DNA of 5,489 nt from a virus. Its lineage: Duplodnaviria; Heunggongvirae; Uroviricota; Caudoviricetes. Shown here in pieces: positions 3,001 to 5,489 of this stretch. The stretch lies in IMG/VR virus record IMGVR_UViG_2703718673_000002; one strand, written 5' to 3'. Every line of letters starts with the position of its first letter. Positions within the stretch are counted from its first letter, which is position 1. Made by a program: the position numbers.

Positions 3001-5489
3001 AAGGGCGGTTTAATAATCTACGGCTTATTGTTGAACGAAATAATTTATATGTGACAGGATTTGTTAACAGGACAAATAATGTTTTTTATCGCTTTGCTGA
3101 TTTTTCACATGTTACCTTTCCAGGTACAACAGCGGTTACATTGTCTGGTGACAGTAGCTATACCACGTTACAGCGTGTTGCAGGGATCAGTCGTACGGGG
3201 ATGCAGATAAATCGCCATTCGTTGACTACTTCTTATCTGGATTTAATGTCGCATAGTGGAACCTCACTGACGCAGTCTGTGGCAAGAGCGATGTTACGGT
3301 TTGTTACTGTGACAGCTGAAGCTTTACGTTTTCGGCAAATACAGAGGGGATTTCGTACAACACTGGATGATCTCAGTGGGCGTTCTTATGTAATGACTGC
3401 TGAAGATGTTGATCTTACATTGAACTGGGGAAGGTTGAGTAGTGTCCTGCCTGATTATCATGGACAAGACTCTGTTCGTGTAGGAAGAATTTCTTTTGGA
3501 AGCATTAATGCAATTCTGGGAAGCGTGGCATTAATACTGAATTGTCATCATCATGCATCGCGAGTTGCCAGAATGGCATCTGATGAGTTTCCTTCTATGT
3601 GTCCGGCAGATGGAAGAGTCCGTGGGATTACGCACAATAAAATATTGTGGGATTCATCCACTCTGGGGGCAATTCTGATGCGCAGAACTATTAGCAGTTG
3701 AGGGGGTAAAATGAAAAAAACATTATTAATAGCTGCATCGCTTTCATTTTTTTCAGCAAGTGCGCTGGCGACGCCTGATTGTGTAACTGGAAAGGTGGAG
3801 TATACAAAATATAATGATGACGATACCTTTACAGTTAAAGTGGGTGATAAAGAATTATTTACCAACAGATGGAATCTTCAGTCTCTTCTTCTCAGTGCGC
3901 AAATTACGGGGATGACTGTAACCATTAAAACTAATGCCTGTCATAATGGAGGGGGATTCAGCGAAGTTATTTTTCGTTGACTTAGAATAGCTCAGTGAAA
4001 ATAGCAGGCGGAGATTCATAAATGTTAAATACATCTCAATTCAGTCAGTTGTTGCCGGTCTGATAATAGATGTGTTAGAAAATTTCTGCATGGTGAATCC
4101 CCCTGTGCGGAGGGGCGACTGGTGAACGGTATGATCTCTTTGATGATCGTAAGCGAGAATACGCGGGTTTGGTGGCACCAGGCCGAACTCACCGGGAGGC
4201 ACCCGGCACCATGCAATGGCACATAGCGCCACTCTCCAGCCCCTCTCCGGAGGGGCTTTCTTATGGACAAAAAAAGCCCGCGCAGGGAGACGCTGGCGGC
4301 AAGGAATAAACAACAAAACGTGAAGTAATATTTCAGCTGGCGAATAATATCCGACAGTAATCACTCTGCGCAATAGCGCGGCCTTTTTCGTATTGCGGGC
4401 TGTTGTCTCTCTTCTGCCATTGTCCTGTAACTTCCGGATTTCAGCCCGCTCATCATTTTACTCACAATATTATCCCGGCCGGGAGGATTCATGGCATTTA
4501 AACACTACGATGTGGTCAGGGCGGCATCGCCGTCAGACCTTGCTGATGCACTTGCGCAAAAAATTCGTGAAGGATGGCAACCATACGGTGGGCCGTTTTC
4601 TTCGTATACGGATGATGGCGCAGCACTTATTCAGGCGATTGTCGCAGAAGGTGATGTGAGCACACCTGTTGTGGTGAAGCTGACAGGTGGAGAAGGTGCA
4701 GTAATCAGCGCCACCAGCGACCCCGGGTATTACTTTGTTGTGGTTCTGGCAGGGCAGTCAAACGGCATGTCGTATGGTGAAGGTCTTCCGCTGCCGGAGA
4801 CATATGACCGTCCGGACCCGCGCATTAAGCAGCTGGCGCGTCGCAGTACGGTGACACCGGGCGGTGTCGCCTGTAAATATAACGACATCATTCCGGCGGA
4901 CCATTGTCTGCATGATGTGCAGGACATGAGCCGCCTTAACCATCCGAAAGCGGACCTGTCAAAGGGGCAGTACGGAACCGTGGGGCAGGGGCTGCATATC
5001 GCCAAAAAATTGCTGCCGTTTATACCGGCGAATGCGGGNNNNNNNNNNNNNNNNNNNNNNNNGGGGAATTTGATTTTGGCGGTACGCCGGCAAATCACGC
5101 AGCACAGTTTGGTGCGCTGGTTGATAAATTCCGTGCAGACCTGGCGGATATGGCAGGTCAGTGCGTCGGTGGCTCTGCTGACGGTGTTCCCTGGATATGC
5201 GGGGACACGACGTATTTCTGGAAGCAGAAGAACGAATCCTCGTACCAGACGGTGTACGGCAGCTACAAAAACAAAACGGAAAAGAATATCCATTTCGTAC
5301 CGTTCATGACGGATGAGAATGGGGTGAATGTGCCGACGAACAAACCGGAAGAAGACCCGGACATTCCGGGTATCGGATATTACGGTTCGAAATGGCGTGA
5401 CAGCTCAGCCACCTGGACGTCACAGGACAGGGCGAGCCATTTCAGCGCCTGGGCACGCCGTGGGATTATTTCCGACCGTCTGGCAACGG

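Follow-up and report, generated by a model that had tools for sequence, protein, structure and literature searches.

The two GC-rich hairpins downstream of stx1B in the window (the whole stretch of 5,489 nucleotides that was analyzed) are the internal stem-loop and the terminator of one prophage-borne small RNA (sRNA) gene of the STnc100 family. Rfam model RF02076 (STnc100) matched positions 4059-4268 of the plus strand with 176.7 bits (E = 2.7e-41), where the gathering score, the curated threshold, is 47 bits, and the match spanned model positions 1-206 of 206 and was untruncated. The element is already known, belonging to a catalogued family and being marked by existing annotation pipelines. 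We consider it probable that this Stx1-phage gene has a weak promoter of its own and yields an RNA of about 175 nt which, bound to Hfq, regulates targets in the lysogen by base pairing. The sRNA and the terminator (hairpin 2) had both been among the roles offered in the original prediction and were borne out, while a processing site and a structured 3' UTR, offered alongside them, were not among the right ones. No tRNA or tmRNA gene was detected in the window with ARAGORN (0 genes).

Identity and architecture of the element

The features discussed below are as follows.

4052-4083, plus strand: putative weak sigma-70 promoter of the sRNA, -35 TTGCCG at 4052-4057, with overlapping -10 candidates
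4076-4081 and 4078-4083, plus strand: the -10 candidates TAGAAA (preceded by TGT) and GAAAAT, read in the window sequence
4087-4095, plus strand: P1 5' strand UGCAUGGUG, paired with 4207-4215 and closing the conserved core
4099-4117, plus strand: hairpin 1, core helix P2, 5-bp stem 4100-4104 with 4111-4115, loop GUGCGG 4105-4110
4119-4124, plus strand: candidate pseudoknot strand a, CUGGUG, pairing with a', CACCAG 4176-4181, inside the loop of the b hairpin
4125-4164, plus strand: variable insert, differing in length and sequence among members, with a local hairpin in the MFE fold
4165-4190, plus strand: helix b/b' (Rfam structure), GGGUUUGG 4165-4172 with CCGAACUC 4183-4190, the loop holding a' at 4176-4181
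4192-4206, plus strand: core helix P4, CCGGG-AGGCA-CCCGG (Rfam structure)
4207-4215, plus strand: P1 3' strand CACCAUGCA, from the inverted repeat, the MFE fold and covariation
4216-4237, plus strand: linker from core to terminator, copy-specific, a candidate region for target pairing and Hfq contact
4238-4264, plus strand: hairpin 2, intrinsic terminator, 8-bp stem 4238-4245 with 4250-4257, UCCG tetraloop, UUCUUAU tail
4264-4535, minus strand: convergent partner sRNA of the EcOnc42 type, imperfect terminator hairpin 4270-4296 followed by a U7 run; the 5' end (4535) is an estimate from the ~271-nt Northern size

Both 19-nt motifs that had been described were located, CCCCCTGTGCGGAGGGGCG at 4099-4117 and GCCCCTCTCCGGAGGGGCT at 4239-4257, with a spacing of 140 nt. 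Their common pattern, CCCCT-N3-CGGAGGGGC, occurred twice in the window where 0.00 occurrences were expected from 200 dinucleotide-preserving shuffles, and a repeat finder returned the pair as a 17-nt direct repeat of 88% identity. The smaller inverted repeat placed between them, CCGGG...CCCGG, was also present, exactly at 4192-4196 and 4202-4206, and corresponds to P4. As had been proposed, both motifs fold as GC stem-loops in the minimum free energy (MFE) structure of 4087-4265 (-81.1 kcal/mol, z = -3.79), a stability reached by 0 of 200 shuffles. The idea that the motifs are one duplicated unit with a common role did not hold, since hairpin 1 belongs to the conserved core and hairpin 2 is the terminator. 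A terminator resembling hairpin 1 accompanies about 30% of the phage-borne cores and other terminators are found in about 70%; the resemblance of the two hairpins is a trait of a subfamily and no general feature of the family.

P1, P2, b/b', P4 and the 3' hairpin were all aligned to RF02076 and were all present in the MFE fold. When the structure was laid on 71 diverse family members, 80.8% of positions were paired compared with 73.1% after shuffling, and the covariation score was 0.239 compared with 0.114 (a value reached by 0 of 500 shuffles); with the partners slid it was 0.05-0.10. The first ~130 nt of the RNA would fold as a conserved domain which P1 closes, with hairpin 1 as the second helix, then a pseudoknot, and CCGGG/CCCGG as the last helix. 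The P1 strands form a perfect 9-nt inverted repeat, and the outer three pairs of the helix covary in the 71 sequences. Hairpin 1 corresponds to Rfam model positions 42-57 and is nearly invariant in the 71 members (88.5% of cells paired, a single pair changed on both sides); it is the stem-loop of the STnc100 conserved 5' domain and is common to every family member. No U-rich tract follows its stem (CGACUGGUG) and the terminator scan did not call it, so hairpin 1 lacks the signature of an intrinsic terminator. Helix b/b' was scored by its aligned outer four pairs, a fixed-column count being invalid through register slip, and was 97.8% paired with 4 of 4 pairs changed on both sides. P4 was invariant among the collected members, yet the 21-mer used for collecting them contains P4 and this invariance therefore carries no weight.

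In the pseudoknot, the segment directly 3' of hairpin 1 would pair with the loop of the conserved hairpin that comes next. In 112 cores the positions of a and a' were constant, and 72 different complementary sequence pairs occupied them. The pairing reached only 40.9% in columns of the MAFFT alignment, whose register is shifted by length differences of 1-4 nt in the junction that follows hairpin 1, and for this reason a register-free helix search was used together with permutation and a control zone. The mean best helix was 6.02 bp compared with 4.46 +/- 0.11 bp in 2000 permutations (z = 14.6), and 3.43 bp in the control zone. Family-wide covariation thus supports a putative pseudoknot in the STnc100 core, which is an addition of the present analysis and is missing from the nested structure line that accompanies the Rfam match. 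In other respects the element is a member of STnc100 (RF02076), an sRNA of gammaproteobacteria that was first catalogued in Salmonella, in a prophage context and with nothing essential differing, except that the first ~29 model positions would here be promoter DNA and not RNA.

The gene order around the element is Q, stx1A, stx1B, element, esterase, and the intergenic DNA is 100% identical to that of AP005153 (O157 Stx1 phage, strain Morioka V526) and of Sakai prophage Sp15. Of 5426 complete E. coli genomes, 2553 matched the element and its flank (4059-4330) wholly or partly, at a median of 2 places per genome. Lambdoid prophages carry a convergent sRNA pair in the slot that the element occupies, with the toxin genes on one side and the esterase and lysis genes downstream; the location of the element is of the EcOnc27 type, between late-promoter 'moron' genes and the lysis region and convergent with a second sRNA.

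Linker, terminator and putative promoter

The most likely transcription start is at about 4088-4090, served by the putative weak promoter at 4052-4083, a placement drawn from sequence signals. In 121 family members aligned on GGUGAAU, a -10-like signal was seen at -14 to -9 and a purine at -2 (G in 105, A in 15). A consensus promoter scan made no call at 4052-4083. In Salmonella, STnc100 promoters are bound by RpoD (PMC10794520). From this start the RNA would run to the intrinsic terminator near 4262, giving roughly 175 nt. Counting against the proposed start, it predicts ~173 nt for the copy in Stx2 phage, shorter than the ~235/247 nt at which the RNA of that copy, EcOnc27, runs; transcripts may therefore have a start upstream of the proposed one or arise by cleavage of the toxin mRNA.

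Hairpin 2 was called by the terminator scan and corresponds to the 3' hairpin of the Rfam model. It has the signature of an intrinsic terminator: 6 of the 8 stem pairs are G-C, the UCCG loop is 4 nt long, and the stem is followed by the tail TTCTTATG. The interruption of the U-tract (UUUCUUAU) counts against it. Viral contigs contained the 18-mer of hairpin 2 at 126 places, 108 of them preceded by an STnc100 core and 18 not, and the distance from core to 18-mer was 47-54 nt where scored. Hairpin 2 should stop unmodified polymerase arriving from the iron-regulated stx1 promoter, and so might insulate the downstream genes, while Q-modified polymerase from the late promoter would pass through it.

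In the RNA itself, Hfq would be anchored by the terminator hairpin together with its U-tail, leaving target pairing to the linker or to other exposed segments. In phage contigs the same core and the same terminator are found joined by several unrelated linkers, and the Hfq-crosslinking peak of the Stx2 homologue, which we mapped from Table S2 of PMC4104026, corresponds to its last ~80 nt. The linker at 4216-4237 may be the seed. Counting against a base-pairing role, the best-conserved parts of the family are structured helices and junctions and an obvious single-stranded seed is absent, which is unusual for a base-pairing sRNA.

The conserved 5' domain and the toxin transcript as alternatives

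The conservation of the 5' domain can be read in another way, namely that this domain is the functional unit, acting in cis or binding a ligand or protein (as a riboswitch-like aptamer, a module acting on RNA polymerase or RNases, or a 5'-end stabilizer), and that the sRNA form is one use of it only. The anatomy of the core is riboswitch-like, with a closing helix, invariant AAU, GCGG and AGGCA in junctions and loops and a covarying pseudoknot, and P1 appears to be the exact transcription start. In ~15 enterobacterial species a KdgM-family porin gene follows the same core at a distance of 80-223 nt, and no canonical terminator separates the two; such a core is also STnc100 by Rfam (77.9 bits in the locus designated L009). 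A variant class of core lies ~30 nt upstream of small ORFs, and of 5426 E. coli genomes, 1844 have the E. coli variant copy at the head of a prophage operon. Beyond the KdgM-porin subgroup, the downstream genes are heterogeneous, which leaves no single ligand logic, and many copies, tandem ones included, close with strong terminators of their own like ordinary sRNA genes; the homologues exist as discrete RNAs that depend on Hfq and have partners in trans (PMC4104026, PMC8550237). A search for a conserved competing helix, as expected of a riboswitch, found none. The sole alternative pairing that could oppose the terminator, that of the hairpin-1 3' arm with the terminator 5' arm, follows trivially from the likeness of the hairpins and is missing from the ~70% of phage-borne copies with other terminators, and an antiterminator switch of this kind was rejected. 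We regard the reading of the 5' domain as the functional unit as unlikely.

In its specific form, in which the ~130-nt 5' domain would be a pseudoknotted aptamer-like module that heads both sRNAs and mRNA leaders and binds a small molecule or protein instead of seed-pairing, we hold the proposal to be rather doubtful. If it were true, one of the most often annotated bacterial 'sRNAs' would be mis-classified. Polymerase, an RNase or a chaperone would be candidates for the bound protein, and the mRNA examples would be the KdgM-family porin leaders and the prophage operon that a third of E. coli genomes carry. What the conserved domain does is a testable question, raised by the pseudoknot and by the copies in mRNA leaders.

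The region could also be no independent RNA at all and consist only of the 3' untranslated end of the stx1 transcript and its terminator, serving as a structured tail or as an insulator. As an intrinsic terminator, hairpin 2 is a good one, and it stands 258 nt past the stx1B stop codon. Stx1 made from its own promoter is reportedly produced without phage lysis or particles (PMC7547250), consistent with a stop before the lysis genes, and the longer EcOnc27 species could come from toxin transcripts. Against this, thousands of prophages, and also non-phage loci across Enterobacterales, carry the STnc100 element with no toxin gene upstream, promoter-like signals stand at a fixed distance from P1 family-wide, and covariation maintains a complex fold which a terminator does not need. 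This explanation appears very improbable to us.

The minus strand and related small RNAs

A protein-coding role for the region, either through the annotated minus-strand ORF b70 or through a small plus-strand ORF, is highly improbable. AP005153 is annotated with a 324-nt minus-strand ORF in the region and the ORF list contained frames of 34-110 amino acids. For EDL933 a 210-nt 'STnc100_10' with RNA-seq reads is listed (PMC5331693), equal in length to the present Rfam match, from which we infer that it is the present copy; its low RNA abundance and high ribosome-footprint ratio of 3.21 count against the sRNA reading, and the ratio would favor a coding one. Indels of 4, 8, 4, 12 and 4 nt separate the Stx1 copy from the Stx2 copy and break any frame, and it is the RNA helices, with compensatory changes, that dictate the pattern of conservation. 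The original suspicion that the minus-strand ORFs are not genes was supported.

The minus strand does carry the EcOnc42-type partner, which is reported to flank stx1AB on the 3' side (PMC7547250). The EcOnc42 Hfq peak at 2924036-2924118 (+) in Sp15 (PMC4104026, Table S2) corresponds to about 4352-4435 on the minus strand of the window after a shift of 134-135 nt between genome versions, which was calibrated on the published StxS 3' end (PMC7547250). In the Sakai Hfq crosslinking data the numbered peaks in the stx1 intergenic region belong only to EcOnc42 (PMC4104026), which counts against Hfq binding by the present RNA. In the minus-strand RNA at 4264-4470, structure did not exceed that of shuffles (z = 0.09).

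The anti-sRNA AsxR, or a near relative, had been raised in connection with this region and does sit 3' of stx2B in Stx2 phages (PMC4104026), sharing the prophage neighborhood and forming half of the same convergent sRNA pair; as the identity of the present sequence it is refuted and practically without any chance, since neither AsxR (RF02703) nor AgvB (RF02702) gave a match in the window at E <= 1 (AsxR scored 88.1 bits in VT2-Sakai as the positive control in the same search), the conserved ~42-nt 3' motif of the anti-sRNAs had no match in the window within 3 mismatches, and AsxR, a 53-nt RNA, lies on the opposite strand directly 3' of the Stx2-phage STnc100 (PMC4104026), beyond the hairpin region. 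AsxR and AgvB are RNAs of 51-60 nt with unrelated sequence.

The closest studied relative is EcOnc27, which is sRNA103, of the Stx2 phages (Sp5, 933W). In VT2-Sakai the same slot carries STnc100 with 207.7 bits, and one deposited Stx2 phage record annotates the same-slot element as STnc100. The two copies share the slot 75-80 nt past stxB, the strand and the family, and their cores are nearly identical. The variable insert, linker and terminator differ (GGCCUCUCAUAGCAGGGGCC in one against GCCCCUCUCCGGAGGGGC in the other), as does the convergent partner, AsxR for EcOnc27 and EcOnc42 for the present copy, and the targets therefore likely differ. EcOnc27 is Hfq-crosslinked, visible on Northern blots and convergent with AsxR (PMC4104026), and overexpression of sRNA103 raised fimZ and espA transcripts (PMC12711010, PMC7873438). 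PasD1 and PasD2 of enteropathogenic E. coli, compared here by description only, are reported to be prophage-borne, beside esterase genes and Hfq-dependent, with an STnc100-like structure (bioRxiv 10.64898/2026.05.13.724894; PMC8550237), and are said to differ in their seed regions; PasD is STnc100-related, depends on Hfq for its stability and has many RIL-seq partners (PMC8550237; bioRxiv 10.64898/2026.05.13.724894). By homology with EcOnc27/sRNA103 and PasD, the present RNA is most likely an Hfq-bound base-pairing regulator in the lysogen.

The put RNA of HK022, a cis-acting antiterminator, is likewise a structured RNA starting right at a lambdoid-phage promoter, but it is ~70 nt long with two stems and binds RNA polymerase (PMC9378689), whereas the STnc100 copies stop at their own terminators. 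No core-like sequence was found in positions 24000-32000 of the HK022 genome (8 kb, chosen to cover the early control region), and a put-like identity was rejected on this result and on the different architecture.

The hairpin finding itself has little weight, the family being catalogued and the Stx2 counterpart already studied. What is worth recording is that the O157 Stx1 phage has its own diverged STnc100 copy beside the toxin genes, that this copy is paired with EcOnc42 and not with AsxR, and that its linker, and so probably its targets, are unlike those of EcOnc27. These details of the Stx1 copy are relevant because polymorphisms in the equivalent Stx2 region have been reported to predict haemolytic uraemic syndrome more strongly than any other genomic feature (PMC12711010); in our mapping these polymorphisms fall in or near the putative sRNA promoter.

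Identity and setting of the element downstream of stx1B

The window covers late genes of a Stx1-converting lambdoid phage, in the following order.

5' of stx1A: ninG/ninH-like genes, then Q
~2270-2527, plus strand: StxS region (short PR' transcript ending at tR'), converted from Sakai coordinates
2754-3701: stx1A
3711-3980: stx1B
3981-4490: intergenic region, 510 nt
from 4491: SASA-family sialate esterase gene

The intergenic DNA is 100% identical to that of AP005153 (Stx1 phage, O157:H7 Morioka V526) and of Sakai prophage Sp15, and published Sakai data can therefore be transferred base for base. 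StxS in Sakai starts at 2,926,201 and has its 3' end at 2,925,944 (PMC7547250); conversion of these coordinates placed the start near window 2270 and the terminator GCCAGCCTCCCCCAGTGGCTGGCTTTTTT at ~2494-2527, in a region without a match to any Rfam family at E ≤ 1. Runs of N at 2258-2259 (inside Q) and 5039-5062 (inside the esterase gene) look like masking and not biology, since the AP005153 ORFs are annotated as continuous across the matching regions.

The original prediction described a duplicated GC-rich hairpin motif 3' of stxB. Direct sequence checks confirmed two 19-nt motifs at 4099-4117 (hairpin 1) and 4239-4257 (hairpin 2), sharing a motif that is not due to chance (2 matches versus 0.00 expected), and an inverted repeat CCGGG/CCCGG between them at 4192-4196 / 4202-4206. 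All three hairpins, for which RNA folding had been proposed as a check, were present in the MFE fold of 4087-4265 (-81.1 kcal/mol, z = -3.79), which was equalled by none of 200 shuffles. Hairpin 2 was also called by a terminator scan independent of Rfam (4238-4257 plus tail TTCTTATG, 8 pairs of which 6 are G-C, 4-nt loop). Hairpin 1 is not terminator-like, CGACUGGUG coming directly after its stem.

A search of all Rfam families (E ≤ 1) returned exactly one match within the window, STnc100 (RF02076) at 4059-4268 (+), which covered model positions 1-206 of 206 with 176.7 bits (gathering score 47 bits) and E = 2.7e-41. In this alignment hairpin 1 is an internal helix (model positions 42-57) and CCGGG/CCCGG a further one, both enclosed by a long-range helix of UGCAUGGUG (4087-4095) with CACCAUGCA (4207-4215), while hairpin 2 is the 3'-terminal hairpin of the model. 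The original reading was thus partly right: its observation stood, and the region, which it had left as a terminator, structured 3' UTR or sRNA, is a member of the known family STnc100 in a known genomic arrangement. No tRNA or tmRNA was found in the window. A 324-nt ORF, b70 (4041-4364, minus strand), is annotated opposite the sRNA in AP005153 and as 'hypothetical protein' here in several other records; frame-breaking indels between copies indicate a spurious call.

A pseudoknotted core and an exchangeable terminator

More than 120 Enterobacteriaceae and Erwiniaceae genome contigs contain the 21-mer ACCGGGAGGCACCCGGCACCA (4191-4211), part of the conserved 5' core of STnc100, often in several copies per genome and in some in tandem; Rfam assigned STnc100 to most of the copies tested. 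We collected 112 distinct cores and aligned 71 diverse ones with MAFFT. The structure of helices P1 (4087-4095/4207-4215), P2 (hairpin 1), b/b' and P4 (CCGGG/CCCGG) gave 80.8% of cells paired versus 73.1% in shuffles, and a covariation score of 0.239 versus 0.114 (reached by 0 of 500 shuffles), or 0.05-0.10 with partners slid. In helix b/b' (4165-4172 / 4183-4190) the outer four pairs were 97.8% paired with double-sided changes in all four, and P1 covaried in its outer pairs. Hairpin 1 was almost invariant among the 71 cores, so that covariation neither proves nor challenges its pairing; the invariance of P4 carries no weight because it was fixed by how the core set was collected.

The segment CUGGUG just 3' of hairpin 1 (strand a, 4119-4124) is complementary to CACCAG in the b-hairpin loop (a', 4176-4181). 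The positions of this pairing are constant across the family, in which 72 different sequence pairs maintain it; the best helix averaged 6.02 bp, whereas 2000 permutations gave 4.46 ± 0.11 (z = 14.6) and a control zone gave 3.43 bp. Since the order along the sequence is a < b < a' < b', the STnc100 core of the window and of the collected loci L004-L123 has a covariation-supported H-type pseudoknot. The nested structure line that accompanies the Rfam match lacks this pseudoknot, and no mention of it was found in the STnc100-related literature examined.

The terminator 18-mer GCCCCTCTCCGGAGGGGC occurred at least 126 times among the matches listed (120 viral contigs), with an STnc100 core upstream in 108 (at a distance of 47-54 nt in the scored cases) and none in 18; the 108 core-linked copies differed in linker, with four or more unrelated kinds, and in the partner on the opposite strand. 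Occurring with unrelated linkers or without a core, GCCCCTCTCCGGAGGGGC is therefore a hairpin of a generic kind, very stable and with a UNCG-type loop, that recombines as a modular unit. Among 120 viral contigs sampled by their core, 36 carried the GCCCCTCTCCGGAGGGGC terminator. It was missing from the other 84 (87 cores); where a terminator was callable these had a different one, e.g. GCCUGC...GCAGGC, and 39 had no strong hairpin called downstream. The copy in the Stx2 prophage of Sakai has GGCCUCUCAUAGCAGGGGCC. As terminators differ among copies, the likeness of hairpin 1 to the terminator is real but limited to a subfamily of E. coli-type prophage copies. Cross-pairing of the two hairpins is an automatic consequence of this likeness, and no evidence was seen that it acts as a switch.

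In Superficieibacter (e.g. L031:6323-7018; also L030, L042, L068) two or three STnc100 genes form tandem arrays with a spacing of ~220-270 nt, most copies having their own terminator hairpin and linkers varying from copy to copy. Exact core matches also occurred in assemblies labelled Prolixibacteraceae, Halomonas, Mucilaginibacter, Vagococcus and Geobacteraceae (L016, L037, L044, L055, L078); in three of the five the contig was very short (377-1625 nt), with a coverage of 0.73 for one of them, and the five matches are probably enterobacterial contamination and not a wider host range.

Predicted transcription start, and partner RNAs in Stx1 and Stx2 phages

When 121 members were aligned on GGUGAAU, positions -14..-9 resembled a -10 element, a weaker resemblance to a -35 lay 17 nt further upstream, and position -2 was a purine (G in 105, A in 15). 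On this basis the window copy would have its -10 region at 4076-4083 and start at 4088-4090, the first bases of P1, with the caveat that the apparent size of EcOnc27, the Stx2 counterpart, exceeds the size predicted from the corresponding start by 60-75 nt. The window copy has a poor -35 and its putative promoter was not called by a consensus scan, which fits the low read count of its presumed EDL933 equivalent (PMC5331693). With such a start, RF02076 model positions 1-29 would be promoter DNA, and model positions 5-15 (window 4063-4073), through which pairing of STnc100 with stxB was proposed (PMC12370729), would lie upstream of the RNA and be untranscribed from the sRNA promoter. Ribosome footprints on EDL933 'STnc100_10', which we presume to be the equivalent of the window copy, exceeded RNA-seq reads (ratio 3.21; other copies 0.04 to 2.16; PMC5331693 Table 1); possible reasons are that a compact structured RNA sediments together with ribosomes, or that a small frame is translated.

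According to Tree et al., at least eight Sakai prophages carry a pair of convergent sRNAs in their 'moron' site (PMC4104026). The plus-strand RNA of Sp5, EcOnc27, is Hfq-crosslinked and ~235/247 nt on Northern blots, the 247-nt species being destabilised without Hfq; AsxR, antisense to stx2AB, has a length of 51-60 nt (PMC4104026). EcOnc27 is sRNA103 of EDL933, whose overexpression raised fimZ and espA transcripts (PMC12711010, PMC7873438). In the same slot of Stx2 phage VT2-Sakai (L003), STnc100 scored 207.7 bits and begins 75 nt after stx2B; the plus-strand RNA is already annotated as STnc100 in one deposited Stx2 phage record. AsxR, named in the original prediction as a possible match, was not detectable in the window, nor was AgvB; in VT2-Sakai AsxR (88.1 bits) abuts the STnc100 copy on the opposite strand. 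Compared with the Stx2 intergenic region, that of the Stx1 phage is well matched in the STnc100 core and once more close to the esterase gene, but the antisense slots of the two are unrelated.

In Sp15 the minus strand encodes EcOnc42 as partner RNA, ~271 nt by Northern (PMC4104026 Table S2), and stx1AB is 'bookended' by EcOnc42 3' and StxS 5' (PMC7547250). EcOnc42 was placed in the window with a genome-version shift of 134-135 nt calibrated on the published StxS 3' end.

4264-4535, minus strand: EcOnc42-type convergent partner sRNA, extent from the published Northern size of ~271 nt
4270-4296, minus strand: EcOnc42 terminator, back to back with hairpin 2
~4352-4435, minus strand: EcOnc42 Hfq peak, converted coordinates

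If the ~271-nt size is right, its 5' end would lie inside the esterase ORF, antisense to the start codon at 4491. The terminator is 70% complementary to hairpin 2 and has a central mismatch in the present phage versus most other copies. The EcOnc42 region was found in 1134 of 5426 E. coli genomes, and its RNA was no more structured than shuffles.

The strongest reported predictors of haemolytic uraemic syndrome are two polymorphisms 3' of stx2B, T/C at +90 and loss of a T at +103 (PMC12711010). By our own count these sites, in the stretch L003:1523-1562 (+68 to +107), would fall in or beside a predicted extended -10 (TGT-TAAAAA) and a T-run just before the putative start of the Stx2 STnc100 copy; the polymorphisms may thereby change promoter strength of the Stx2-phage sRNA.

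Possible functions, and copies in front of other genes

In the best-supported reading, the element would be transcribed independently as an Hfq-associated sRNA, by homology to EcOnc27 and PasD (PMC4104026, PMC8550237), and its terminator may also stop unmodified transcripts from the stx1 promoter, as suggested by the terminator signature and by expression of Stx1 from its own promoter without phage lysis (PMC7547250).

A cis-acting, or ligand- or protein-binding, role of the pseudoknotted domain appears unlikely to us, and is retained because the core also heads apparent mRNA leaders and, in a variant form, a prophage operon. In the former, the core is located 80-223 nt 5' of a KdgM-family porin gene (Pfam PF06178, E = 8.5e-74), for example in Kosakonia, Enterobacter and Klebsiella (L009:813-1135 and ~15 similar loci: L022, L024, L025, L032, L034, L040, L055, L062, L070, L075, L077, L084, L105, L119). 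They may be cis-acting leaders, since a conserved 5'-UTR block lies between core and porin gene and no canonical terminator was found there. In a variant class (L005:1449, L113, L245:3001-3127), situated ~30 nt 5' of small ORFs, GCGGCUCAGCGCACGCGG takes the place of hairpin 1, and P1, the AAU junction and the 21-mer are retained; five of six copies tested were under the Rfam threshold. In 1844 of 5426 complete E. coli genomes the variant, under a 'frameshifted hypothetical protein' annotation, heads a prophage-borne yfdP-yfdQ-yfdR operon. Phage copies lie in front of a sialate esterase gene, a possible parallel to KdgM, a sugar-acid porin family.
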